64,000 nt of DNA, taken from positions 1 through 64,000 of the IMG/VR virus record IMGVR_UViG_3300027754_000047. The stretch is one strand, 5' to 3'. The notes under the pieces were generated by a model. That model was not told the origin of the DNA and did not search any database. It saw only the letters and a program-made list of their open reading frames with translations. The translations under genes and the position numbers were made by a program. Shown here piece after piece: positions 22,303-60,252 of this stretch. Position 1 is the stretch's first letter. Every line of letters starts with the position of its first letter. This stretch comes from a virus.

Positions 22303-23057
22303 CTTACTACTCCGGAATTTCTCCGGCCCTTTCGGTTGTAGTCTGGACTATATCTTCCCCTTCAACTAAATGGTCAGGGGTATCGTGCATAGTCTCTGAA
22401 CCTTCCACTTGCAACGTTTTCTCGTTGCTTAGCGGCTCGGCTGCTGATTGGCCAATTTCCCATATTTTTATAACTTTCACGGTCGCTGTTTCCAGCCACG
22501 TTGTAGTCATGGGAACTATAAGGCTATTCCAGCAATTCTCGATATTCTCAATCTTTGATTTCTCAAAGATGACTCTTTGACAATTCAAGAACCAATGGAG
22601 TCGGCCGTGCATCTTCCTGGTAATTACCAAGAGATTAGTTGAATCATTATTCTTAGGATTGGCGTCCATATGATGGACTACTTCATGGGTTTGAAGTTTT
22701 CTACCTAGAATAGATTCCGCTATTGCACGGTGCTTCCAAAGCTGGCCGGTTGCTTTAAACGATTCAGGATCGTACTCATACTGGTTTGTATGAACTCCTT
22801 TATCGCATAAAAGACTTCTACAAGCTTTGCAGAATAGAGCGGATCCTCTAGCCGCAGAGAAAACACAACTACATGCTTTACAAGACAAGGTATAGGAATA
22901 CCTGCCTTGAGTTTCAAAGCGCTGTTTAGCTGATTCTCTTTTGGTTAGTAAGTAACACATTCTGCAAAGCTTTCGACCGACTTGTCTTGGACTGTCACAT
23001 TTAGAACATATTAACATGGCGTTTAGTATAACGCGTCTGCCAGTAAGTTCAAAATCA
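22303..23057 (-). mobile_element. Group I intron (755 nt) in the tRNA-Leu anticodon (U^AA)
   Basis: U before the 5' splice site and terminal G. IGS GAGUC (22575-22571) pairs with exon GACUU, giving the U-G wobble. P2 AUCUUUGA-GAAA-UCAAAGAU; P AAUUGCUGGAA, Q AAUCAGCAG, R GUUCAGAGACUA, S AAGAUAUAGUCC; P9 hairpins. Confidence 0.92.
22307..23017 (-). CDS. Intron-encoded HNH homing endonuclease (236 aa)
   Basis: Four CxxC pairs, then HRAIAESILGRKL...VVHHMDANPKNNDSTNL...HGRLH. Confidence 0.85.
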   Translation of the reverse strand: MLICSKCDSPRQVGRKLCRMCYLLTKRESAKQRFETQGRYSYTLSCKACSCVFSAARGSALFCKACRSLLCDKGVHTNQYEYDPESFKATGQLWKHRAIAESILGRKLQTHEVVHHMDANPKNNDSTNLLVITRKMHGRLHWFLNCQRVIFEKSKIENIENCWNSLIVPMTTTWLETATVKVIKIWEIGQSAAEPLSNEKTLQVEGSETMHDTPDHLVEGEDIVQTTTERAGEIPE

Positions 23058-28400: not shown

Positions 28401-29557
28401 CAGGGTGTAGCTTTAGCTTTTTGGAGTGCATTATAGGCTTCTAGTAAATGTGATTGATCTGCCCCAAAAAATTGTTGCATATATTGCCCGTACCTTGAGC
28501 CGCCAATCTCTTTTGCTTGGTCAGCCATGCGCTTGCCTTTAGCCCAGAAGCCAGCATCAGCCGGTAGGCTTGGGTGGTTTGCATTATACTCATCGATAGC
28601 GGCTGGCCCTTCAAGCCCTACAGATGTAGCCATGTTGACTCCTGCTTGGACTGCGCCTTTCAAGGGAGCTACCCACGGAGCACTAGTCAAAATACCGAGA
28701 CCTTGCCTAGCTGTAGTATAGGCGTCACTAGGCAGCACACTGGAATGCATAGTTTTAGCAAAGCCTTGATCTACGGGATTGGTACCGCCTCCGTCCCACG
28801 CATAATACTTAGGATTAAGAGCATAGTGCTTAAGCGACTCGAAAGCAGAGCCAAAAGTACCTTTAACAGCTATTCTAGCGGCCTCAGATTGAGACATTCC
28901 TTGCTGTACTAGTTGAGTTTCTAGTTCTTGCCGACGTTTATCCATTAAGTCGTACCCGTTTGCAGCATGGTGAGCTAGATCATTTACGGCAACCGCTGAA
29001 GTAGCAGTAAGAGCAGGAGTAACTACTCTTTTAGTTATATTTCCTGCCCTTGAGGTCCCTGTTAGGTTCCTAACTCGACCTGAATGAGGGGCAAATACAA
29101 AACGACCTGGCGGAGTATTAGCAACAGCTCTGACCGGAGTAGCAGCAAGCCGACCTGCTCCTCTAACTAATCTGGAGCCAGCGCCTAATGTGCCAGCGAC
29201 TAACGCCAATGCTGCGGGAGTATTACTAGCTATTGCTGGGGCAGCCACTATTCCGCCTGCGGCTCCGCCGGCTAAGCCAGCAACCCCTGTAGACAGGGCG
29301 GCTGCATCTAACAGTTTATCGTTCTGGTATCGTAGGGGAACCTTATTCGTCCCAGGTGCAGCATTTCTAACTCTACGCACAGTATCTAACCAAGTAGAAT
29401 CATCAGCATAATCTGAACCAACTCGACCACCTGACCAATAGTTTGCAGCACCTGTAAAAGGTTCTGCCAATTGATTACCAAAAGTAGACCACCAACCAGG
29501 CTGCTCGGCGGCTTGCTTAAGAACTAGGTTAATTAAGTTGTTGGCGAGTTTAATCAA
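28400..29557 (-). CDS. Putative virion protein, N-domain paralogous to 39235-40668
   Basis: TTG start overlapping the RNAP stop; MIKLANNL...LKQAA leader; FGNQLAEPFTGAA domain. Confidence 0.7.
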   Translation of the reverse strand: MIKLANNLINLVLKQAAEQPGWWSTFGNQLAEPFTGAANYWSGGRVGSDYADDSTWLDTVRRVRNAAPGTNKVPLRYQNDKLLDAAALSTGVAGLAGGAAGGIVAAPAIASNTPAALALVAGTLGAGSRLVRGAGRLAATPVRAVANTPPGRFVFAPHSGRVRNLTGTSRAGNITKRVVTPALTATSAVAVNDLAHHAANGYDLMDKRRQELETQLVQQGMSQSEAARIAVKGTFGSAFESLKHYALNPKYYAWDGGGTNPVDQGFAKTMHSSVLPSDAYTTARQGLGILTSAPWVAPLKGAVQAGVNMATSVGLEGPAAIDEYNANHPSLPADAGFWAKGKRMADQAKEIGGSRYGQYMQQFFGADQSHLLEAYNALQKAKATP

Positions 29558-32500
29558 CCCACTCCTCCAACTATTTTGACGGTATCCGTTGCGTCTATTT
29601 CACCTCGGTTAAACGCTCTAATAACGTCATCCTTGGTACGGAAAGATTTTACGTTGTTCTTATCGGCACCCTTACGGCTGGCTAGGAATAGCCCATATAA
29701 GAACTCGTTCTTGATAAAGTTGTGAGCCTTCATAGTGGAAGCCGATAACAAGTTCCTACTAGGCAACATGCGGTCGTAAGCTTCCTTTACAGCCCCTGCA
29801 CTACTAGGTACGTGTAAACGCATCTGATCGCCGTCGAAGTCAGCATTAAAACCTACAACGACTGAAGGGCTCATGCGCATGGTATTACCTGTAGTTAATA
29901 CCGGCTTGGCTGCCATGAAGTTGTATTTGTGTAGTACCGGAGCTCGAGTAATGAGTACCGGCCTTTTTTCCATTTCATACAACAAAGCCCTACGAGCTGA
30001 GTCGGTCTTATTTTCTACTTGCTTCATGGCCTCAATAGGACTAGAGCCAGCAGCAGTAAGGGCTCTAATAATGTACGGCCTAAATACTGTAAATGCCATA
30101 TCTTCTGGTACCCCAACGTGGTCCATATCCATTGATGGATCAGGTGCAATAACGGCATTACCTACCCCTTCGACCGTAGAAGACAAGACCTTGCGTTGAA
30201 ACATACTAAACTTAGGATTGGAACCTAGCAAATGGCGAATTAAACCATTAACGTTCTTTTGCTTTAACTTAGCTGAAGCTGGATCGGTTAGGCCTACAGT
30301 AGCTTTGACCATACGGTAAAGGGCTAGTTGTTCTTTACCTGTAGAATCTGCACCTAGTTCAGTTTGCAGTTCCTTTAAGTTACTATTCATTGAATAGAGT
30401 TCTTTGTAAAGGAAGTTCATATCTGCCACCATCTGCATAGAGCCGGTGTCAGTAATAGGTCGGAATCTAGGAGGCAAGACCGGCATGGAGTCCCACAAGA
30501 ATTCCGATGGGTCTATTTTTCTTTTAGCCATTCCGTCTAGGTAGGCTAACTTAGTAATAGCATTAGATCGCTTTTGGCCTTTAGCTGTAGCCATTTCTTT
30601 CTTAGCTGCAGCCTGCTGGCTAGGAATGTCGTAGTTATGTAAGTAGGCAGTAAGGCCAGCCATACCCTTGATACCCTTAACGTCTTCGCCGCTGACTACA
30701 GCTTCGAAATCCTTTTGGGTCAAGCCAGTTAAGGATCTAACTGCATCCTCCATTACCGGGTTAACTACTTTAGCTGCTAAAGGAAAATGCCCGAAGGAAG
30801 ATTGGTTTACGCCGAAGATCTTCTCGTCAAAGAAGCCGCCATCTACAGCTTTGCCGGTACGGAAGTCTATATCTTTGGGGCTCTTTACTTCACCACCAGA
30901 CATAGCCTTAACGTCTGAATTGGTCATACCGTAGATGTTAATGATGCCGCCTTGGCGTTGAACGTTTACTCCAGCGCCCTTAAGTTGAGCTACGAACTTA
31001 TCCCAAACAAATGGTACGGCTACGTTGGGTACTGGAGTGCCAGCTTTAACTGCTCGCCAGTACTCGTCGTTCTTTTGCCCTCTGATAAGCCTAGCATCCT
31101 TAAGGACTTCTATAGCACCGTGGGCTAATAGGGAGTTAACATCTGCAATACCAATACGCTTAGCGCCTTCGGAGCCTCCCTTTACTGGGGCTTCTTCATT
31201 AGAGTACCCACCGGTATCTCGGCCGCTCAACTTGCCTTCTGCTTGATGGTGCAAGTTCATAAAGTAGCGAGTACCGGTAAAAACGTTATCTATATTCTTG
31301 TTGAGTCTCGGATCAAATATAGTTTCTGTGTCTGAAACTCTAGCTTTTTTAAGTTCGGCTTGAGCGAAGTCAATAAGGGATCCGTCGATGAAAGCTGGCA
31401 TTTTGTACGGTACGCCGGTCTGGGCTGCCAACTTCCCCAATGCCGCTTCAACGGCTTGTACAGGATTAACCCGAGTGACAAGAGCCAATGGATTATAGAT
31501 AACTTCATAAGCTGCTCCTGCCTTATCTTGAGGCATATCACTATCTTCTATTACCGCAGAGATAACACCTTTATCTCCGTAACGCCCTACTAGCTTATCA
31601 CCAGCTGTCATAGGCTTATAGGATTTAATAGCAACTTGCCAACCGGTTCGGGTTGGAGTCACGTCGGTAACTACTCCAGGCTGAGAGTGTTCCCAAGTTT
31701 GAGCCCTATTCGTAAAACTAGGTCGAGATTTCTTCACTAAACCAAAAGTGTCAGACTTACGTTCTCCTACCCCTAAGATAATAGGATCGCCTGGATTAAC
31801 AACCGTGCCTGGTTTAATTACTCCGGTGCTATCCATTTGCTTTAGTTGGTCTTTGGAGTACTGCCCAGGAAACAACGAGATAAACTTGTTGTAATCAGCA
31901 GTATAGTCGTCCTTGTTGTCATAACCTACAGTGTACATATGCTCTGAAGACATCTTCTTCGCAGCACTAGCGGAAACAACTACTCCGTCTTCGAAGTTGG
32001 AACCACCTAGTTCCTCGTCGCCCCAAATCATATATGCTACTTTGAGGTTCTTACCCATAGCTAGGGCACCATTAGCGTCAGTATAGTTAGACTTAGCTAA
32101 TAACTGACCAGGCTTAACCTGATCTCCTAGTTTAACTCCAGCAGTATTGTGTATGTAGGTGTTGTGTACTAGTAGACCGCAATCTACTGCAAACACTTGG
32201 CTGCTGGCGACTTCGAAGTCATAGACATAGGCGGCAGGTTCAGCCTTAGTAATACTTACTACTGTATCCCACATAACGTCAGAGTCTGCCCAAGGCTTAA
32301 GCACTCCGGATTTAATGCGGTGCCGTTGTATGTAGCTTCCAGCAGTAGCAGTCTTGTAAACCGAATGAGGGGTTGTTGCCCCAGTGCCGGCATATGCCAA
32401 GACCCTACTAGCCTGAGTAACAGGGATCCCGTCGAACGTAGCAGCCCTAAAACTAAGGGAGGTTAAACTATTTAGCTTTTCGTTTCGGTCCTGGTAGCAG

Positions 32501-35500
32501 AACCAGGCTGCTAGTCTATTAATGTGGCTAGAGATTACTCTCAGGCCATAACTAGGATTCCAAGCTGCATTTTGGTGGAGCTTAGTCTTTGGCAGTGTGC
32601 AGAATATTCCTAGAGAGGCCAAAATATCTACCAGTCTATCTCTCATTAACAAACTAGCAGTCCAAGCTTGTAGCTGTACGGCTCCATTAGTATCTGAGTG
32701 TAAGCAACCATCTCCAGACATGTAGCCTTGGATTAGGCCCTTACGAAACTCTACTGAGCGGAGCATAGTTTGCTCAGAGGGAGCCTTAGCGCCACTACCG
32801 TGTCCAAACTCTTGCCGCAGCCAAGTAGCGGTTTGCTTACAGGTAAAAGAGGCTTTACCTGTACTAACAGCATTGACGTGAACTTTAAACCCAAGTGTAG
32901 TCAAAAGGATATTAAGCTCTGCTTGCCGAGCTGCTGGTTGAGCGGCCAGTACTACTAAGTTTGGCTGACTTGCAGGTATGTGGCCCTCTGCTAAGTATAA
33001 TCCTGCCAATAAGCCCCAAGCATGAGTATCGTGATCCATGGTGCTGCAGGCGCCTAAGGTCATTCCTACTACAGGCAGTCGAGTTACGCCTACCTCACAG
33101 TCAGCTGGATATATGGGCACTAACTCTCCGGAGTCTCCTAGCGTAACTAAGGAGTGATCCTCAGTAGTAACCACTTGACGGCCAGATAGTGTAGTAGTCA
33201 GCACCAGGCGCTTAGTGTTAGGGATCTTAGCAAACCCTGTGATAGGCTCCCAAGCTGCCGCCTTAGTGTCCAGATTAATGGATCTTATTAGATCCCCTGA
33301 CTCTTGCTGATAGTCTTGGGCGGCTACTTGCTGAATTACTCCAGTTGCTCGTTTGATCCAAACTTTGGTAGCTCCGGCAACACACTTACGGTTAAAAGGA
33401 AAGTTGTTGTACAATTCGTACCGCTTCTTATCCTTGCCGTGCTTAACCTCAATGTAGTCTGCTGTTACATCGGTAACCAAACCTGCACCTAAAGCCGCAT
33501 CTGCTCTTACAGCACCTAAATAGGCTGATACTCCATCTTCGAAAGATTTACCTTCAGCATCGTTGGGATCCAGAGCTTGCACTAATGGTGCTTCTGCTTG
33601 CTGTAAAGGTAACGCTTGAGTGAAGTACTTTGAACCCATTAATAAGCGGCCACCCTTAATACCGGAAATACCAGGTACTAGGTTGGAGTTTAAATTAAAC
33701 ATGTTGGCATAGCTTGGTACCTCGTACTGTACAGCCTCAGGCTCTACGTAAGAGATCTTACCATTAACCATAGCTCGTACTGGGTCGCCGGTTCGTAAAG
33801 CCCTAGCAAGCTCGCCTGGAAAAGCTACAACAGCATCGGTAACAGTTCTAGCAGGTATTTGTTCAATCTTACCTGTTTGGATATTCTTCATCTTAGAGTA
33901 GATCTGGCCGTCAGAACCCTTTAAAGCTCCAATGGTTAATCTAAGATCTACACCTACTTGAGAAGATTCTGGAGTGCGTACTGGATCAATAAAGCCTAAG
34001 TGACTTGGTTGAACGGAGCGGGTATCTACAGGAATACCGTGGGCAGCAGAACCAATACCACCTTCGCCGGTGCGAATGACTCTAAGGTTCTGATCCAGAA
34101 TTTCCATTGGATTAACTTCTTCAATGGGCGCACCTAAACCCGAACCCATTAACACTCCACTAAGTACCGGAGTAAACACGCCGTTTCTAAATGCTTGTAA
34201 ATTGCCTTTATTGGTAGCCTTAAAAAGGGCACCACGTAAAGCACCTCCAGCATCTTTAACTATTCGCTCTGCAAAGAAATCCTCAGGGCCATAGAAACGT
34301 TGATAAGTTAAGGCATCGCGATCATCTACATCTTCGCTGCCCTTTTGAGCATTCAAAACCTTTTGACTAGCTCTTAGTAAGGTGCTGCCGGTAACTCTAG
34401 TTAAGTCTTCTTCGTTTAACTGAATGTGATCATTGCTTGCCTCAAAGTTAAACATAGGCTCAGTTGATTTAACTGGATCCATTAAACCGTTTAAATCGTC
34501 AAAGCCTGCTACCTTTACTCCGACAGCTAATCTAAAGCCACCTGTAGGCTTAGGATCTAATAATAAACTGCGGCGAAACTGCTCTAGTTCCGGACAATCA
34601 ATATCGATGCACCATTCTCCGTTATTAGGAGGTAAGACCTGGCGAACAATATAAGTGAAGCGCCGGCCATTACCGCAAGTAGCTTCAAACTTAGACTTAA
34701 AAAGCTTCTTTAGCTTTTTAATTTCTTCAGAAGTAATTACCACTAAACGGCCTTTGTCTTCTACTGGCGAGATACCTGGAGCATTATCTCCGTCTCTTAA
34801 AGCGTAGTAGACTCCGGTAACCATACCTGCAGGTACGGTGATATAACCTTCGGATTCTAATTTAAGGGTACCCCTCATAGGCACCGCTGCAGTCTTAACG
34901 CGAGCTCCTAAAGTTCTAGCTACTACTTCTTTATTAAGCTCAGTGTTATATAGGGCTGTACGAATACCTTCATACAGGTCAGGCTCACTTATGCCACTAG
35001 ATGGATTACTAGTAAGCCGCTCATATATACGAGCAGCATCATAAGGAGATGATGCTCTATTGTTAGCAAAAATCTCTTTGCCCCAGCTACGCTCAAGTAC
35101 CTCGTCTGGTACTCCGTAAGCCTTAAGCATAGGATATAGTGGCGCAACTGATTGACCAATTTCGGTAACAAACTTACCGGTATCTGGCATGAAGGCAACT
35201 CTAAAGCCTCGACCCTTACCCGGTAAGGTATTAAAGTGAGCTTCGTATTCACCCGACTTACGCTTACGTACATAAGCGCCGGGCAACAACCTAGCTTGAT
35301 TGGCTACAGTGTATTCGCTGCCTGCGTTTATAAAAGTGCCTCTGTTGGTTAAGTAAGGCACTCGAGCTAAAGTTAATGATCTATCTGTCTTATCTAGTAC
35401 AGCTCCGGTGGCTATATCTCGCATAACCAGCTTACCCTTTAACGGGTAATACAAACTTTGATTCTGCATCAAGGCTTGCTGTTGCTCTTTTAAACTGTAA

Positions 35501-35691
35501 TCTTCCGACTTACCATAACGCAAGTCAGTCAACTCCACTCTGTAGCGGGTATTTTGTAAAGGAAACTTAGCTGCTACTGCAGTAAAAACATTATCAAAGA
35601 TGTTTTTACGTGTAGCTGTGTAGTCGCTAAAGCCTCTAAGAGTTGGAGCTTGTGGTTGGATTAGGGCGTTTAAATCGTCCTCAGTAGCCAT
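29554..35691 (-). CDS. Phage multisubunit-type RNA polymerase: beta fused to the N-terminal (catalytic) part of beta', intein-containing
   Basis: Beta motifs VPYLTNRGTFI, SHLGFIDPVRTPES, LMGS...QALPL, GKNLKVAYM, NFEDG, GDKLVGRYGDKGVIS and LHHQAEGK. Beta' motifs GFFDEKIFG, FGHFPL, PVLPPRFRP, PVLITRAPVLH and the catalytic FNADFDGDQM. Confidence 0.93.
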   Translation of the reverse strand: MATEDDLNALIQPQAPTLRGFSDYTATRKNIFDNVFTAVAAKFPLQNTRYRVELTDLRYGKSEDYSLKEQQQALMQNQSLYYPLKGKLVMRDIATGAVLDKTDRSLTLARVPYLTNRGTFINAGSEYTVANQARLLPGAYVRKRKSGEYEAHFNTLPGKGRGFRVAFMPDTGKFVTEIGQSVAPLYPMLKAYGVPDEVLERSWGKEIFANNRASSPYDAARIYERLTSNPSSGISEPDLYEGIRTALYNTELNKEVVARTLGARVKTAAVPMRGTLKLESEGYITVPAGMVTGVYYALRDGDNAPGISPVEDKGRLVVITSEEIKKLKKLFKSKFEATCGNGRRFTYIVRQVLPPNNGEWCIDIDCPELEQFRRSLLLDPKPTGGFRLAVGVKVAGFDDLNGLMDPVKSTEPMFNFEASNDHIQLNEEDLTRVTGSTLLRASQKVLNAQKGSEDVDDRDALTYQRFYGPEDFFAERIVKDAGGALRGALFKATNKGNLQAFRNGVFTPVLSGVLMGSGLGAPIEEVNPMEILDQNLRVIRTGEGGIGSAAHGIPVDTRSVQPSHLGFIDPVRTPESSQVGVDLRLTIGALKGSDGQIYSKMKNIQTGKIEQIPARTVTDAVVAFPGELARALRTGDPVRAMVNGKISYVEPEAVQYEVPSYANMFNLNSNLVPGISGIKGGRLLMGSKYFTQALPLQQAEAPLVQALDPNDAEGKSFEDGVSAYLGAVRADAALGAGLVTDVTADYIEVKHGKDKKRYELYNNFPFNRKCVAGATKVWIKRATGVIQQVAAQDYQQESGDLIRSINLDTKAAAWEPITGFAKIPNTKRLVLTTTLSGRQVVTTEDHSLVTLGDSGELVPIYPADCEVGVTRLPVVGMTLGACSTMDHDTHAWGLLAGLYLAEGHIPASQPNLVVLAAQPAARQAELNILLTTLGFKVHVNAVSTGKASFTCKQTATWLRQEFGHGSGAKAPSEQTMLRSVEFRKGLIQGYMSGDGCLHSDTNGAVQLQAWTASLLMRDRLVDILASLGIFCTLPKTKLHQNAAWNPSYGLRVISSHINRLAAWFCYQDRNEKLNSLTSLSFRAATFDGIPVTQASRVLAYAGTGATTPHSVYKTATAGSYIQRHRIKSGVLKPWADSDVMWDTVVSITKAEPAAYVYDFEVASSQVFAVDCGLLVHNTYIHNTAGVKLGDQVKPGQLLAKSNYTDANGALAMGKNLKVAYMIWGDEELGGSNFEDGVVVSASAAKKMSSEHMYTVGYDNKDDYTADYNKFISLFPGQYSKDQLKQMDSTGVIKPGTVVNPGDPIILGVGERKSDTFGLVKKSRPSFTNRAQTWEHSQPGVVTDVTPTRTGWQVAIKSYKPMTAGDKLVGRYGDKGVISAVIEDSDMPQDKAGAAYEVIYNPLALVTRVNPVQAVEAALGKLAAQTGVPYKMPAFIDGSLIDFAQAELKKARVSDTETIFDPRLNKNIDNVFTGTRYFMNLHHQAEGKLSGRDTGGYSNEEAPVKGGSEGAKRIGIADVNSLLAHGAIEVLKDARLIRGQKNDEYWRAVKAGTPVPNVAVPFVWDKFVAQLKGAGVNVQRQGGIINIYGMTNSDVKAMSGGEVKSPKDIDFRTGKAVDGGFFDEKIFGVNQSSFGHFPLAAKVVNPVMEDAVRSLTGLTQKDFEAVVSGEDVKGIKGMAGLTAYLHNYDIPSQQAAAKKEMATAKGQKRSNAITKLAYLDGMAKRKIDPSEFLWDSMPVLPPRFRPITDTGSMQMVADMNFLYKELYSMNSNLKELQTELGADSTGKEQLALYRMVKATVGLTDPASAKLKQKNVNGLIRHLLGSNPKFSMFQRKVLSSTVEGVGNAVIAPDPSMDMDHVGVPEDMAFTVFRPYIIRALTAAGSSPIEAMKQVENKTDSARRALLYEMEKRPVLITRAPVLHKYNFMAAKPVLTTGNTMRMSPSVVVGFNADFDGDQMRLHVPSSAGAVKEAYDRMLPSRNLLSASTMKAHNFIKNEFLYGLFLASRKGADKNNVKSFRTKDDVIRAFNRGEIDATDTVKIVGGVG
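32161..33384 (-). mobile_element. Intein (408 aa) with a LAGLIDADG endonuclease in the RNAP beta region
   Basis: N-terminal C (FNRK|CVAG), block B TTEDH, LAGLYLAEG and GYMSGDG, block F VYDFEV, terminal HN followed by Thr +1. Confidence 0.92.
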
Positions 35692-48231: not shown

Positions 48232-48303
48232 TTCTTCCTCCTTTTAGCTGTGCTTTAGGCTTAACGCAAACCTAATTTTTAATGGTAACACAGTTCACAT
48301 GTT

Positions 48304-48332
48304 ATATTCACACAATAGGTGGGCTATTTTAA
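48304..48332 (-). promoter_or_regulatory. Phage promoter motif TTAAAA-N17-GAATAT
   Basis: Immediately follows the terminator at 48333-48364. Confidence 0.5.
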
Positions 48333-48364
48333 TAGCTAAATAAGGACCCCGGTTAGGGGTCCTT
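48333..48364 (-). terminator. Terminator with a TTTAGCTA tail
   Basis: AAGGACCCC/GGGGTCCTT stem. Confidence 0.7.
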
Positions 48365-48385
48365 GGGTCTCAAAAGCCCCTGTGT

Positions 48386-48832
48386 TTAGCTACCAGACTG
48401 CACGAAGATCGTTTCTCCTGCAGCTCCCGCTGCCTTTCCTGCAACACCCGCCGTCTTGTCCACCGCCTCCTGAGGAGGAGCTTTCATTCCCTCATCGGCG
48501 GGCCGTCGGTCCCTATTGGCCTGGGACCGGGCCTTGTCGTCCTCTTCAGAATTCTTGGCCTTCTTCCTGTCCATCACTTCGTTCGCCTTGGCTTCCACCA
48601 TTGGGGTGGAAGCAACCAGCATGCCGAGCGCGGCGAAGGCCAACGTCGTGATCGTGGCCATGCCGTTGAAGCCGGCCACCACCATCGAGCGGGTTTCATC
48701 CATGGACCAAGTCCACGGAAATAACCAGCTTTCCCCGCTAGCAGGGACCAAAGCGTCTCCGCCGCCAATGGCAACGAAGAAGAGAATCGACACAACCGCG
48801 TAGGGCATAAAGCCCCAGAAGAACTTCTTCAT
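48386..48832 (-). CDS. Membrane protein (two TM, charged tail)
   Basis: Two hydrophobic segments; has its own promoter, leader and terminator. Confidence 0.7.
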   Translation of the reverse strand: MKKFFWGFMPYAVVSILFFVAIGGGDALVPASGESWLFPWTWSMDETRSMVVAGFNGMATITTLAFAALGMLVASTPMVEAKANEVMDRKKAKNSEEDDKARSQANRDRRPADEGMKAPPQEAVDKTAGVAGKAAGAAGETIFVQSGS

Positions 48833-48921
48833 TCGAAGTTCCTTTCCGGGGTATTACCCCTAGTAGTCGCTTACTTGTAGTCAGGATTACGCACCCAACA
48901 GCAAGTATCGCTACTTATATA

Positions 48922-48950
48922 TATATACCGCAAAAGGGGGTCTATTTTAG
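48922..48950 (-). promoter_or_regulatory. Phage promoter CTAAAA-N17-TATATA
   Basis: Near-identical to the copies at 50208, 50386 and 50769. Confidence 0.8.
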
Positions 48951-48979
48951 TCCCTCAATACTGTCAACCTTTAATAGCT

Positions 48980-49476
48980 AAAAAGAACGATCCTTATGGC
49001 CCCGAAGGGTGGCAAGGATCGTTCTATAGCTGTTGCGGTGTTTCTGCAGAAACCTTGACAACAGCTAGTTATTGTTCCGGAACCTCCGGGCATGGCTTAC
49101 TAACACCTCTTCGTCCTGCCGCAACCTACTGATCTTGTAGGTCGCTTTAGTTATCCCCTCGCAAGGGGGGCGGTTTACGAGGGACAACCCAACTCTCGTT
49201 GGATTTCTAGGTAGGCTCTCGTCCCCTAGACATACCCACTCCAGTTTTATTAGAGTAGGCTGTTAATAGGTCCCTCACAGGTATGGGACCAACCTTGACT
49301 AGCCTCCGTTGCCACGGGGCGCTGCTCTTTTGCCGAGCCAGCATTAAAGTCGAACCTAAATGGAGTGTACAGCTCCAGTGCTACCGGGGGTATTTATTCC
49401 GGTAAGCTGCTAACCCACCAGTTAGGTAGGTCATACGGTAGGTACCGTAGGGCCCTATATATTGCTATATAGAGCT
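48980..49476 (-). ncRNA. Candidate ~500-nt multi-hairpin non-coding RNA
   Basis: No ORF of 60 aa or more; bounded by the promoter at 49482-49510 and the terminator at 48975-49025; about 16 consecutive stem-loops. Confidence 0.7.
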
Positions 49477-49481
49477 TATGT

Positions 49482-49510
49482 ATTATACCCCAAAAAGGAG
49501 GTTATTTTAG
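49482..49510 (-). promoter_or_regulatory. Phage promoter CTAAAA-N17-TATAAT
   Basis: Motif match directly after the terminator at 49522-49562. Confidence 0.8.
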
Positions 49511-49521
49511 CCTTACCTTGA

Positions 49522-49562
49522 TACCTAAAAAAAGCCCCCCAACTCCTTGCGGAGTGGGGGGC
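49522..49562 (-). terminator. Intrinsic terminator (TTTAGGTA tail)
   Basis: GCCCCCC-ACTCC stem followed by T7. Confidence 0.8.
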
Positions 49563-49583
49563 ATCGTCCATGGTGGGGGGCCT

Positions 49584-50111
49584 TTAGCGGCTCCACCACC
49601 ATGCCAACTGATCAGACCATGAAGGATTGGTCAACCGCTGCACTCGCTGCTCGCTCGCAATCTGCTGTGCGATTGCAGCAGAGGTGGCCGATTTGTTTCC
49701 CATCGACGCCCTAACATGGATCGCCGCCGTCCACGCCGGGATGCGGACGTAGTCAATTCCAGCAGCCTGCGCCACCCACGCATCGTGGGTGGTTTGGACC
49801 GTCATGATTGCAGCGACGCCCAAGTCGGGCGTCACCTTCGTCGCCGCTTCTACAGCGGCGCAAGTGGAGGCTCCTGCCTCCACAATTCCTTCTGGGGTGG
49901 TGGTGCACTCCACCTTAAGATCCAGCTGCTTCTGCAGCTGCTGCTCTGCCTCACTCCAAGCTGCCTTGGTCTCCTGGATGGAGACCAGCATGGCTGCGGC
50001 CTTTGCCGCAACCTCCTCCGCCGTCGGCGCCTTAGCCGAAGGTGGAGTCGCTTGGCAAACGCCTCCGATGAAGAAGGCGATTGTACAAACGAGTGTTAGA
50101 AGAGTCTTCAT
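49584..50111 (-). CDS. Secreted Ala-rich protein
   Basis: Signal peptide MKTLLTLVCTIAFFIGGVCQA; AGGAGG RBS. Confidence 0.75.
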   Translation of the reverse strand: MKTLLTLVCTIAFFIGGVCQATPPSAKAPTAEEVAAKAAAMLVSIQETKAAWSEAEQQLQKQLDLKVECTTTPEGIVEAGASTCAAVEAATKVTPDLGVAAIMTVQTTHDAWVAQAAGIDYVRIPAWTAAIHVRASMGNKSATSAAIAQQIASEQRVQRLTNPSWSDQLAWWWSR

Positions 50112-50207
50112 GAGACTCCTCCTTTCCGGGGTATTACCCCTTTAAGCTGTTGTTGACAGTATGAGCGGTTACGCAACCCTCATTATCAGCTACAACAGCC
50201 TTAGGTA

Positions 50208-50236
50208 TATATACCTCAAAAAGGGGTCTATTTTAG
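50208..50236 (-). promoter_or_regulatory. Phage promoter CTAAAA-N17-TATATA (left arm of a 35-bp inverted repeat)
   Basis: 50205-50239 is the exact reverse complement of 50383-50417. Confidence 0.8.
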
Positions 50237-50244
50237 CCCTAAAA

Positions 50245-50368
50245 AGGCCCTTTTAGGCCCTTTTAGGCCCTTTTAGGCCCTTTTAGGCCCTTTTAGGGCT
50301 ATTGACAGTTTTAGGCCCTTTTAGCCCTAAAAAGCCTCTTTTAGGCCCTTTTAGGCTCTTTTAGGCCT
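50245..50368 (+). repeat. Tandem decamer (AGGCCCTTTT)n; origin or terminus candidate
   Basis: Five perfect copies at 50245-50294 plus degenerate copies, interrupted by TTGACAGT, between outward-facing promoters. Confidence 0.85.
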
Positions 50369-50385
50369 GTTGACAGTATTAGGGG

Positions 50386-50414
50386 CTAAAATAGACCCCT
50401 TTTTGAGGTATATA
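50386..50414 (+). promoter_or_regulatory. Phage promoter CTAAAA-N17-TATATA (right arm)
   Basis: Exact inverted copy of 50208-50236. Confidence 0.8.
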
Positions 50415-50420
50415 TACATA

Positions 50421-50740
50421 TGGCCGTTATAGCTATATATAAGAGCTTATCCATGTCGGAATGGCCTTTATAGCTATAACGAGCCAATATGTAGTAGTAC
50501 GTATTGGCAGTTGATCCCCCTCACCCCTTGCGGGGTGGTGCAGGTCGCTAACCCTAAGGGGGAGGCTATCCGGACAGGTACCTCCTACGGTGGGGCCTTA
50601 ACCCGACCTCCCCCCCGAAGTCTGGGGTCACGGTTGCAATGCGAAACCTCCACATGAAGGTGTGGAACACGGGAATCGCGCTTAAGCCTATTGGAAATAG
50701 GGTGAAGCAAAAACCCCCCTGAAATGGGGGCTTTTTTTTT
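50421..50740 (+). ncRNA. Candidate ~320-nt structured non-coding RNA
   Basis: No ORF of 60 aa or more between the promoter at 50386-50414 and the terminator at 50714-50745; multiple stems. Confidence 0.65.
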
Positions 50741-50768
50741 AGCTATTAAAGGTTGACAGTATTAGGGG

Positions 50769-50797
50769 CTAAAATAAGGCTCCTTTTGAGGTATATA
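50769..50797 (+). promoter_or_regulatory. Phage promoter CTAAAA-N17-TATATA
   Basis: Motif match after a terminator. Confidence 0.8.
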
Positions 50798-50880
50798 TAT
50801 ATGTAGAGGGTTTAGACCTAATTGATGGGTGTTCCATTAATTAGAAACAAACCCTACTACTACTCTTGAAAGGAGTAGCC

Positions 50881-51084
50881 ATGTCAATAGTTTGGCAGCC
50901 GTCCTTACGGCATCCCAAATTCCAGGTCGTAAAAGACCTGGTCTTTGGAATCGTGGGAACAATGGACGGATGGGAAACCTCCTCCATTACTACCACGGAG
51001 CAGGCAGAGGCCCTGCTCCAGATCCCGGGGTGTCCCTTTGAGCAGGAGCTCAAGGAGATCATCAAGAAAGGAGTGAGCCCGTAA
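50881..51084 (+). CDS. Small hypothetical protein
   Basis: AAGGAG RBS before ATG 50881; own promoter and a terminator at 51076-51100. Confidence 0.7.
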   Translation: MSIVWQPSLRHPKFQVVKDLVFGIVGTMDGWETSSITTTEQAEALLQIPGCPFEQELKEIIKKGVSP

Positions 51085-51112
51085 GGGCTTTTTTTAGCTA
51101 TTAAAGTACCTA

Positions 51113-52984
51113 TTACTGTGGAGGCATTCCGGTTGCTGGCGGAGCCGGTTGCCTAAGTTGGTCTTTACCTTGGTTACCTGCTTGCTGAGTAATCTGATCC
51201 AACATACCCTTGATGACAGCATGTAGGTGAGGGTCTTGGCTCTTAATACCTTCCAAGATCTGCCTACGTTGCGGACTGCCCAATGGAGCCGTAGCCATGA
51301 TTTCGTTAACTCGGCCTTGAGCATCCCCAAAGAAGCTTTCCAAGTCCTTACCTGCTCCTGCAGCCGTAGGCCCAGCTACGCCGTTAATAGGCATTGCTGG
51401 AGCGCCCATACCGCCACCGATATTTGGCCCACCTGGCATACCGCCTGCTCCTGCTTCCTGCCCTGGGGCTCCAATGAAGGCTCCTGGAGGCGCAGCCATA
51501 ATCTGCTCGTTTTCTTCTGCTTTGCGCATGCGTTCCATGTAAGACTTTTCTTCTCGCATCTTGAACTCTTGCTCGCTTTGGCGCTTCTTGAAGGTGTCCT
51601 TCCAATCCAAGCCGAAGAGGGTAAGTACGTCTTGTTCCGATGCGACGCCTTGCATCATCATCTGCAACATCATCATGCGGCGTTCAATGTCATCTGCATG
51701 AGTAGGTCGAGTCAAGTTAACTTCACAAGGCAACCAGTTTAGAATAGCGCTAATTCTGTCAACAATCCAAGTTAAGGCTCGTTGTAAGCCGCCTAGAAAG
51801 ATAGTTTCCCCTGCTTCAAATAAACGAGCAGCAAAAGGGGCTGTTTGAACACTAAGGGTCTTACGGTACAGTTCTACTGGAACGCCTAAGCCGTTTAAGA
51901 AGTCAGCTTGGGCTGCATCTAACAGTTGTGGAGTAACAAAGTTCTTACCTTCACCGCCTAATAGTTGGTAATTAACTGGAGTAGGTAACCATTGCCAACC
52001 AGTGGGATCTTTACGAGCTCTATCAATAGAGCGCATAACCTGAGAGCCGAAGGAGCCAATGTTTACCGACTGCATAAAGTCGCCATTGGCTCCAATAGAT
52101 GCCGGAGTAACCAAGCGAATAGGCAACATATGATCTAAGGCAATAGCTTCGTTATTGCGCTTAAGTATTTGGGCTAGGTATGCATCCCTAAAGCCTGCAA
52201 TTACCGGAGGCAAACCCCATTCACCCATTTTGATGTCGCTAAGGTTGCCAATGGAGATATGGTGCAACATGCCGTCAGCAAACTGAAACAAGCTACTAGC
52301 TCGCACAGCTTGAACAATACCCCATGGAGCTTCTTGTAAGTACTTCTTATTGCCGGCCTGAATCAAGGTTCGGTCTTGACTCGGTACTTCGTAGTAATAC
52401 TCAGGAATACCTCCGTATGGCTGGTTTACGATTCTAATCTGCCGAATTGGCCAACGCTTAATAGTGATCTTATTCTCTTCTAGTGTAGGTCGATCATCTG
52501 GATTAAGCGTTTGAACCTGCTTACCGCAACTAGCGCACTTGTAACTAAACCCAGTGCTTAGACTAAACTTATATTCTACGTTAGCAATAGGCCGAGCTGC
52601 TCCACACTCAGCACAAGTTAAAAAGCGCTTAAATGGAGCTAATACCGAGATACAAGAATTACCGTAGACCTTGATATCCCGGCCAATCAAAAACAACAGA
52701 GTTTTAATCTGTTGTTTTTCTAAGAGGAACTTCTTGTACTCCGCCGCCTTATCTTCATCCTTAGTAATCACGTTAAGGTCGGTGCCGGTAAAGTAAGAAA
52801 CTACGTATTCAATAGCTTGGGCAAAAGTTCTATTGCTGTAATACATAGCCTCCGCCATCTCAAATGATTCGTTTATGTTCGTAGGCATATGCAGGGATGC
52901 ATAGTCTAAGAACGGACTAGGAATACTATCTGAGTGGCTTAAAGCTCGGCGCTTGCTAAAGTCTGGCGTTGAAAAATCTGGCAT
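51113..52984 (-). CDS. Putative portal protein
   Basis: 623 aa; GRDIKVYGN, WGLPP and FLNGLGVP segments reminiscent of portals; inserted Zn ribbon (CAEC/CASC); G/P/Q-rich tail. Confidence 0.5.
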   Translation of the reverse strand: MPDFSTPDFSKRRALSHSDSIPSPFLDYASLHMPTNINESFEMAEAMYYSNRTFAQAIEYVVSYFTGTDLNVITKDEDKAAEYKKFLLEKQQIKTLLFLIGRDIKVYGNSCISVLAPFKRFLTCAECGAARPIANVEYKFSLSTGFSYKCASCGKQVQTLNPDDRPTLEENKITIKRWPIRQIRIVNQPYGGIPEYYYEVPSQDRTLIQAGNKKYLQEAPWGIVQAVRASSLFQFADGMLHHISIGNLSDIKMGEWGLPPVIAGFRDAYLAQILKRNNEAIALDHMLPIRLVTPASIGANGDFMQSVNIGSFGSQVMRSIDRARKDPTGWQWLPTPVNYQLLGGEGKNFVTPQLLDAAQADFLNGLGVPVELYRKTLSVQTAPFAARLFEAGETIFLGGLQRALTWIVDRISAILNWLPCEVNLTRPTHADDIERRMMMLQMMMQGVASEQDVLTLFGLDWKDTFKKRQSEQEFKMREEKSYMERMRKAEENEQIMAAPPGAFIGAPGQEAGAGGMPGGPNIGGGMGAPAMPINGVAGPTAAGAGKDLESFFGDAQGRVNEIMATAPLGSPQRRQILEGIKSQDPHLHAVIKGMLDQITQQAGNQGKDQLRQPAPPATGMPPQ

Positions 52985-60001: not shown

Positions 60002-60252
60002 CTGCTATCTATGTCCAGTTTTCGGCGTTCGCCCAGGTCTTCAAGGGTCAATTTGCCGTTGTCGGTTACCTTTAAGCGGTAGTAGCCTAAAAGTTTTCCT
60101 TTATTAGTAGTGGTACTAAGGACCAAAGCCAAAGCGTTACGGGCTTTACCGTAAAAAGCAGGCTCAACGGTAATAATGGCACCTCCTTCCCCTTGCGGGG
60201 AAAAGGAGGTGACAGCTTCCATAGGATCAGGTTCGTGTACTAATACTCTCAT
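59998..60252 (-). CDS. Hypothetical protein
   Basis: Coupled ORF. Confidence 0.6.
   Translation of the reverse strand: MRVLVHEPDPMEAVTSFSPQGEGGAIITVEPAFYGKARNALALVLSTTTNKGKLLGYYRLKVTDNGKLTLEDLGERRKLDIDSS

Follow-up and report, generated by a model that had tools for sequence, protein, structure and literature searches.

Positions 50385 to 50740 (plus strand) of a 64,000-nucleotide stretch of viral DNA (the window, which is the first 64 kb of the 129,472-b IMG/VR virus record IMGVR_UViG_3300027754_000047, itself estimated to be 73% complete) form, as judged from the sequence, one self-contained and complete cassette of a variable promoter/terminator array by a portal-like gene. The source is an uncultivated freshwater (lake) phage with a multisubunit-type RNA polymerase of its own. 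In the initial annotation, this unit was described as a second non-coding RNA, transcribed separately from an RNA of about 500 nucleotides (nt) encoded nearby. Its sequence signals and its surroundings agree with that description, but neither homologues nor covariation back it, and the core shows no fold signal. Our preferred explanation, to which we give somewhat less than an even chance, is that the unit is lineage-specific non-coding RNA cargo, an 'RNA moron' whose product works as free RNA. Promoter P4 would start the RNA near 50420-50423, and the RNA would first fold the long 5' hairpin found throughout its promoter class, probably stabilizing it against 5'-end-dependent decay. Another tight hairpin would come next, then the lineage-specific cargo, about 200 nt rich in G+C and lacking a translatable frame; transcription would stop at a hairpin-plus-U9 terminator near 50740. 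That such an RNA is produced and is useful we infer from the sequence. A separate non-coding unit fits the context because the other cassettes of this phage group that are free of open reading frames (ORFs) are real RNAs.

The cassette begins with P4 (GCTAAAATAGACCCCTTTTTGAGGTATATATA), found at 50385-50416 (+), where a promoter had been called at 50386-50414. P4 belongs to a phage-specific class made of CTAAAA, 17 nt and TATATA; the record has five copies, all within 48.9-50.8 kb, and the class is also present in relatives. The promoter of a neighboring gene for a protein of 175 amino acids (aa), at 50237-50206 (-), is an inverted twin of P4, identical at 32 of 32 positions, and the inverted repeat formed by the two extends over 52 nt at 92%, reaching into the first ~18 transcribed bases. 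No sigma-70-type promoter was matched at P4 in a promoter scan. A TTGACA word lies upstream of P4, at 50370-50375 (+), and TGTTGACAGTAT repeats at 50151, 50368 and 50751; the 33 nt that separate this word from TATATA are not sigma-70 spacing. A stem-loop in the promoter spacer seemed compensatory by eye, but only about one third of 27 distinct promoter strings have it, and we make no claim for it. By alignment with the other cassette starts, transcription is predicted to begin at 50420-50423 (+), 6-9 nt past TATATA. For the transcript of the 175-aa gene, RNA contigs from two studies both end at 50191, 15 nt beyond the twin promoter.

At its other end, the cassette has an intrinsic terminator (50714-50740, +), in which an A5 tract is followed by a C/G hairpin (stem 50716-50730) and then by U9 (T9 in the DNA), as had been annotated; the minus strand of the region is weakly terminator-like as well. 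All five cassettes of the class end in terminator-like sites, of which the scan found 9, against 3.3 in shuffles. A conserved terminator-to-promoter junction (50741-50767, +; AGCTATTAAAGGTTGACAGTATTAGGG) then runs into the promoter of the next cassette. Junction and promoter recur as a repeat (48 nt, 90%), and an inverted copy of the junction is found at 48941-48982. At the sequence level, the unit thus has a promoter of its own, a terminating stem-loop joined to the next promoter and a variable region, as expected of an autonomous cassette.

The predicted RNA opens with a hairpin at 50421-50486 (+; -30.2 kcal/mol, z -6.58). Within it lies the perfect 13-bp stem that had been noted at the start of the RNA (50425-50437/50469-50481, +; pair probability 0.99). 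The stem is real; it is not, however, a feature of this RNA but a part of the class, because a long 5' hairpin (z -1.85 to -6.58) opens all five of the cassettes with this type of promoter. The class hairpin is probably a 5' stabilizer. A long 5' hairpin is also the common design of the leaders of the 175-aa gene and of a gene for a 148-aa protein (50112-50201 and 48833-48915, both -), which have in addition an identical segment with a small hairpin and a Shine-Dalgarno sequence (AGGGGTAATACCCCGGAAAGGA).

Beyond the class hairpin, a second hairpin of 11 bp, GCCAAUAUGUA/UACGUAUUGGC, is predicted at 50483-50508 (+) with a GUAG loop and a probability of 0.99. Its one U.G wobble would be a C.A mismatch if read from the other strand, and three wobble pairs in tight hairpins, together with the U9 tail, favor the plus strand as the transcribed one. 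The lineage-specific cargo follows, a 199-nt core at 50510-50708 (+) with 59.8% G+C. The other hairpins that had been annotated are also in place, although with unequal probabilities: CACCCC/GGGGUG at 50522-50537 (+; 0.46), CCACAU/GUGUGG at 50650-50665 (+; 0.99) and CCUAUU/AAUAGG at 50687-50701 (+; 0.84). The proposed multibranch domain held up only in part. The inner hairpin GGAGG/CCUCC is predicted at 50561-50585 (+; 0.60), but the closing helix AGGUCG/CGACCU reaches only 0.27 and is missing from both the minimum free energy (MFE) and the centroid structures. By the shuffle test, which is weak, the multibranch domain does not go beyond chance. The whole unit does fold better than shuffled sequence (z -4.6; opposite strand, z -5.05), because the 5' hairpin, the second hairpin and the terminator supply the score. 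Of 323 windows of the record, only 2, both adjoining the unit, match its fold strength once G+C is adjusted for. The strongest G+C-corrected fold of the whole record is that of the 321-nt window that starts at 50801.

The core also carries three ACCUCC words within 72 nt (at 50580, 50606 and 50646, +), a number not reached in any other 321-nt window of the record. C-rich small RNAs that mask Shine-Dalgarno sites, such as RsaE/RoxS and LhrC, present their C-rich words in loops. The RNA described here resembles them in having several C-rich words complementary to GGAGG in one molecule, but differs in that these words are predicted to be paired, and no target was found within the record, where the search for targets in trans gave no complementarity longer than 13 nt. 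As a guess, to which folding gives no backing and which we regard as quite improbable, the RNA might act through pairing of its C-rich/ACCUCC words with G-rich, Shine-Dalgarno-like sequences, or by titrating an RNA-binding protein.

Searches for homologues placed the cargo nowhere else. At the gathering threshold, Rfam 15 gave three matches in the window and no family at the unit. With E values up to 10 admitted, the best match was Phe_leader, on the terminator (27.8 bits, where the threshold is 55), and no family had E<0.05. A blastn search of INPHARED found no homologue. Related loci were fetched through the portal-like protein and amounted to 39, namely 27 IMG/VR loci (69-81% identity) and 12 metagenome loci; blastn did not find the cargo in the former and found only promoter and junction matches in the latter. 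The unit was also absent from five whole related records, two of them complete, in a DNA search, and searches of the viral contig collection for relatives of the 175-aa and 67-aa neighbor genes likewise gave nothing. Exact-word scans of viral, metagenome and genome contig collections, which detect near-identical copies only and may omit records close to the window's own, gave no copy. A published IMG/VR-based set holds 10,006 candidate viral RNAs (PMC10690425); in the excerpted text of that work, the pipeline requires at least three distinct regions, so that an orphan such as this one would fall outside the set.

A number of observations weigh against the cargo being a functional RNA. No covariation test is possible, because no homologue was found. 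The core taken without the 5' hairpins and the terminator folds no better than shuffled sequence (z -0.67; 50 of 200 shuffles fold as well), in a test that is weak either way, since z is just -0.18 even for an RNA that is conserved in the relatives. The ensemble of the core is diffuse (centroid -28, MFE -77.5), and its minus strand scores better (z -2.12). The ACCUCC words are mostly paired by prediction (unpaired 0.10-0.24, against a mean of 0.34 for the RNA). The G+C content of the cargo, 59.8%, is that of the neighboring protein-coding cargo (59.8% and 58.6%). Finally, a contig of one DNA run, X2, carries two insertions which, as read by hand, would merge two open frames of the cargo into one ORF of 74 codons.

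The last point bears on the coding potential of the unit. Within the window, its ORF-free status, also claimed initially, holds: the longest ORF with a start is frame A (50511-50657, +), of 48 aa, which begins with TTG and has no Shine-Dalgarno sequence; the frame is open over 50433-50657. Frame B (50558-50722, +), two phases apart, is open for 54 codons from stop to stop and ends at a TGA in the terminator loop. The X2 contig matches the unit over 228 nt (50400-50627) with no substitutions, but has 12 nt inserted after 50535 and one C more in the C7 run at 50610-50616 (+; the insertion is placed behind 50609). Both indels spare the confident helices. According to our reading by hand, the 12 nt leave frame A open, and the extra C joins A to B. 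The unit could then be a small protein gene, of about 74 aa from the TTG at 50511 to the TGA in the terminator loop, that is broken or mis-assembled at the C run, so that the copy in the window would be a frameshifted pseudogene or a homopolymer error. The joined frame would span the cargo from 2 nt past the second hairpin to the terminator loop, in which the gene for a 67-aa protein next to the unit also ends; most cassettes of the array encode proteins, and the cargo resembles the neighboring cargo genes in G+C and in G+C at third codon positions (0.69 and 0.63).

We nevertheless consider such a gene improbable. It would have no ATG and no Shine-Dalgarno sequence, whereas neighboring cassettes have GGAAAGGAG-type sites. 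In codon usage, the two open frames score -0.35 and -0.15. These values are typical of non-coding open frames, 71% and 41% of which reach them, and fall at the 6th and 14th percentiles, a low tail, among in-frame windows taken from real genes. A first codon-usage score had seemed to favor both frames, but the effect was gone once stops were ignored and composition was normalized. From base frequencies, we estimate that a plus-strand frame stays open over 225 nt by chance in about one fifth of random sequences with the same composition. Moreover, the X2 contig has a depth of 2.7, and its indels could be errors. Two word-index protein searches, limited to near lengths, found no relatives of either frame. 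An exhaustive phmmer run gave two weak hits, which we rejected; both were tandem-repeat proteins, aligned to the part of frame B that the joined ORF does not use. Neither did a test for a decayed gene, by six-frame tblastn against the 39 related loci and the rest of the record, give anything better than E 0.32. We conclude that the unit lacks the sequence statistics of protein-coding cargo.

The setting of the unit suggests another explanation. Long ORFs are nearly all on the minus strand, and the unit and the 67-aa ORF that follows form a small plus-strand island in a gene run of ~60 kb on the minus strand; the right-hand junction of the island is spanned by one DNA contig and one RNA contig. 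Inverted copies of the promoter and of the junction flank the island, as expected from an inversion between them, and inversion between the inverted junction copies would explain the island. In the relatives, the cassettes all point one way. The unit could, on this account, be a leftover of recombination, with promoter, 5' hairpin and terminator kept around filler after an exchange or inversion, and the filler, transcribed or not, would have no function of its own. Recombination between cassettes of a comparable kind, the PeSLs discussed below, is documented in the excerpted text of PMC2839356. The unit has no relative at any level searched, its core shows no fold signal, and its significant structure is confined to the generic parts of the cassette, all of which such a leftover would lead one to expect. 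On the other side, promoter and terminator are wholly intact, and two hairpins that are not generic (50483-50508 and 50650-50665) have a probability of 0.99. Phage genomes are also compact, and the 129 kb of this one contain only 8 stretches of 250 nt or more that lack an ORF of 75 aa or more. The absence of substitutions in the X2 contig points the same way, but weakly, as the neighboring sequences are equally alike. We regard a leftover as unlikely, if somewhat less so than a broken small gene.

That the unit is instead non-coding RNA cargo is in keeping with what we found in the relatives. Downstream of their portal homologue, these have promoters of the same class, with all cassettes in one direction and other cargo. 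Four lineages (L007-L010; L011/L033; L016/L036; L027/L028/L031/L040; L041 is also listed) carry another ORF-free cassette, of 175-240 nt, which from promoter to terminator covers 12340-12578 in L007, 4444-4680 in L011, 11951-12150 in L016 and 12656-12840 in L027. It lies downstream of the portal homologue, in L007 behind an intervening small ORF. Its RNA has an invariant CCGG-AAUNCCA-CCGG hairpin and an AAAU-GG-AG motif, and six of its pairs are changed on both sides, a number reached in 4 of 500 shuffles (slid controls gave 1-3). This RNA family is not in Rfam.

The unit of the window is like this cassette in its promoter class, 5' hairpin, ORF-free cargo and terminator. Going downstream from the portal homologue, the relatives' cassette is the first with a promoter, a position that the unit would take were the inverted segment of the window flipped back. 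It is not, however, a member of the family. An nhmmer search matched nine loci and nothing in the unit's own record, and a covariance model run with filters off gave at best 4.3 bits (E 3.2) on the strand of the unit. The sole pieces in common are a 13/14 word and the short AAAU-GG-AG motif (2 of 300 shuffles, in one of five comparisons). ORF-free cassettes are thus a recurring feature of this phage group, and the unit itself is an orphan among them.

A third ORF-free cassette lies in the window itself, at 48975-49480 (-), and corresponds to the RNA of about 500 nt mentioned above. Parts of 48900-51100 occur in 24 sequencing runs, 8 of which are RNA libraries; three RNA runs (X3, X4 and X5, contigs only) and the DNA run X2 were compared over 48300-51300. 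RNA contigs from three lake metatranscriptome studies cover 49093-49455 of this cassette, with word depths of 305, 47 and 27 in the three studies, against 2-15 for adjacent genes. In X3, X4 and X5, no RNA contig lies on 50192-51018, a region that takes in the repeat array, the unit and most of the 67-aa ORF, and such missing cover proves nothing. Two contigs of the neighboring RNA start at 49455, where a DNA contig continues, and one ends at 49093 in adapter-like letters, so that the RNA would end in ...GUAAGCCA; these letters are presumably adapter. The core of the neighboring RNA has a fold z of -4.87 and a well-defined centroid, and it includes CCGGAAUAAAUACCCCCGGUA, which resembles the CCGG-AAUNCCA-CCGG-UA hairpin of the relatives' RNA. 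It had no Rfam match. The neighboring RNA (49093-49455) and the unit are alike in that both have a promoter of the same class and a related quasi-palindromic 5' hairpin, are ORF-free and belong to the same array. They differ in that the former has deep cover by RNA contigs and a well-defined fold, and the unit has neither. No sequence is common to their cargo (80 of 300 shuffles score as high).

It had been proposed that the two RNAs are partners, because 50432-50450 is complementary to the start of the ~500-nt RNA. The complementarity is real and extends, with gaps, to ~29 nt (50422-50450 against 49479-49451); in a local-alignment test, its score of 14 was reached by 0 of 500 shuffles and by 1 of 490 genome windows, and short co-folds gave -27.2 kcal/mol for the isolated duplex. 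Possibly, then, the 5' ~30 nt of the unit's RNA pair as antisense with the 5' leader of the ~500-nt RNA and control its processing or stability. Moreover, 49479-49451 is nearly exactly the segment that the abundant contigs of the neighboring RNA omit: in two studies they begin at 49455, which hints weakly at a 5' end in this place. Both segments, however, are held in 5' hairpins of their own, and the co-fold keeps both, with a free-energy difference (ddG) of only -1.5 kcal/mol, so that the heteroduplex is not favored over the intramolecular folds. In addition, the common UAUAGCNAUAUAUA motif, a quasi-palindrome, gives a same-sense match too (14/16, by eye); the complementarity follows in part from the hairpin module that is common to both RNAs. 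Apart from this match, complementarity to the record is limited to 13 nt. The proposed role as partner or regulator is therefore poorly supported, and we think it very unlikely.

Upstream of P4, between the perfectly inverted twin promoters, lies an array of ~12 decamers (AGGCCCTTTT; 50240-50382). Transcripts that prime or activate replication at origins are exemplified by RNA II of ColE1 and by the R-loop at T4 ori. Given the position of the unit next to the repeat, a primer RNA had also been suggested, with transcription from P4 out of the decamer array priming or activating replication. The adjoining array is indeed phased at 10 bp between divergent identical promoters, and the first 89 transcribed nt are A+T-richer (39% G+C) than the remainder. 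Cumulative GC skew nonetheless has its extremes at ~13 kb and ~98 kb and does not inflect at 50 kb, although phage origins need not leave such a mark. The relatives inspected have the cassettes but no decamer array at the corresponding place. The decamer unit, which reads GGGCCTAAAA on the minus strand, is close to the promoter's own GGGGCTAAAA element, and its resemblance to the CTAAAA element suggests that the array may be a binding site for the transcription machinery and not for an initiator. The RNA would also end at a strong terminator. We found no support for a role as replication primer, which we hold to be scarcely likely.

As non-coding cargo of a cassette, the unit invites comparison with known modular regions. 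In the excerpted text of Arbiol et al. (2010; PMC2839356), PeSL (promoter-early stem-loop) cassettes are described from hyperplastic regions of the T4-type phages RB49 and phi1, as repeated junctions of ~50-100 bp with a strong promoter and a terminating stem-loop that separate variable, non-essential cargo and recombine, shuffling the modules. Here, likewise, each cassette has a copy of the junction (terminator, AGCTATTAAAG, promoter), the cargo varies between relatives, and one segment of two cassettes is inverted between inverted copies of the junction. By that same description, PeSL promoters follow the host sigma-70 consensus and PeSL cargo consists of ORFans, whereas the promoter class of this phage, which has its own RNA polymerase, does not, and the cargo of the unit has no translatable ORF. 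The PeSL phages and this phage are unrelated by the searches run. Morons of lambdoid phages, according to the excerpted text of Cumby, Davidson and Maxwell (2012; PMC3594210), encode proteins, are expressed from prophages and spread by horizontal transfer. The unit is like them in being independent, with its own promoter and terminator, and inserted between conserved genes; it differs in that its cargo is non-coding and that no lysogeny genes were seen in the parts of the phage examined. The array thus departs from both descriptions, as far as those excerpts go, by a promoter class that is not sigma-70 in a phage that encodes a polymerase, and by cargo without an ORF. The large or ornate phage RNAs of Rfam (GOLLD, ROOL and others) are also ORF-free RNA genes, from promoter to terminator, in large phages, but the unit is smaller, has no conserved fold and matches no Rfam family.

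Across lineages, three unrelated ORF-free cassettes are now found by the portal-like gene: the unit of 320 nt, its neighbor of ~363 nt and the relatives' family of ~175-240 nt. On a broader view, which is speculative and in our judgment rather unlikely to hold as a whole, the cassettes of lake phages that encode an RNA polymerase would carry RNA-only cargo as well, the unit would be a mobile 'RNA moron' with a job in host takeover or anti-defense, and its 5' end may pair with the leader of the abundant neighboring RNA and so set the 5' end of the latter. If the RNA is real, modular cassettes known as carriers of orphan protein genes between phages transfer non-coding RNA genes too, and the very few phage regulatory RNAs that are transcribed by a phage's own polymerase gain a candidate. 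The unit is the weakest of the three, being an orphan without a core fold signal, and the RNAs of the neighbor and of the relatives merit bench effort more. The polymorphism of the C run shows in addition that 'ORF-free' status can depend on one base.

The polymerase of the phage is encoded by an ORF of 2045 aa (29554-35691, -), in which Pfam domains identify a fused beta-like part (Rpb2 domains 3 and 6) and beta'-like part (Rpb1 domains 1 and 2), interrupted by an intein with a LAGLIDADG domain. A 225-aa ORF has a sub-threshold match to sigma-70 region 4. The phage has two tRNAs, and a search for a suppressor tRNA found none. Related complete records are 174,569 and 183,468 b long. Close to the unit, on its right, lies the portal-like ORF (623 aa; 51113-52984, -), which tblastn aligned to the 'portal protein' of Salmonella phage Arash at 26% identity (E 1e-46). 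The 67-aa ORF (50881-51084, +) converges on it; this ORF has a good Shine-Dalgarno sequence and its own promoter (50768-50799), and its TAA sits in the loop of its own terminator (51075-51112). It belongs to no family and has no relative in the viral contig collection.

Three further features of the record were seen in passing. A group I intron that passes the Rfam gathering threshold (59.3 bits) lies at 22323-22591 (-) of the window, within a block of minus-strand genes. Beyond the window, at 127,900-129,472 of the record, tandem minus-strand repeats of ~310 nt appear to be inside a coding region (repeat units of ~100 aa). A long, perfect-looking hairpin at 60180-60212 (CACCTCCTT-CCCC-TTGC-GGGG-AAAAGGAGGTG) occupies a gap of ~300 nt between minus-strand ORFs, and its core, CCCCTTGCGGGG, is identical to 50524-50535 of the unit.

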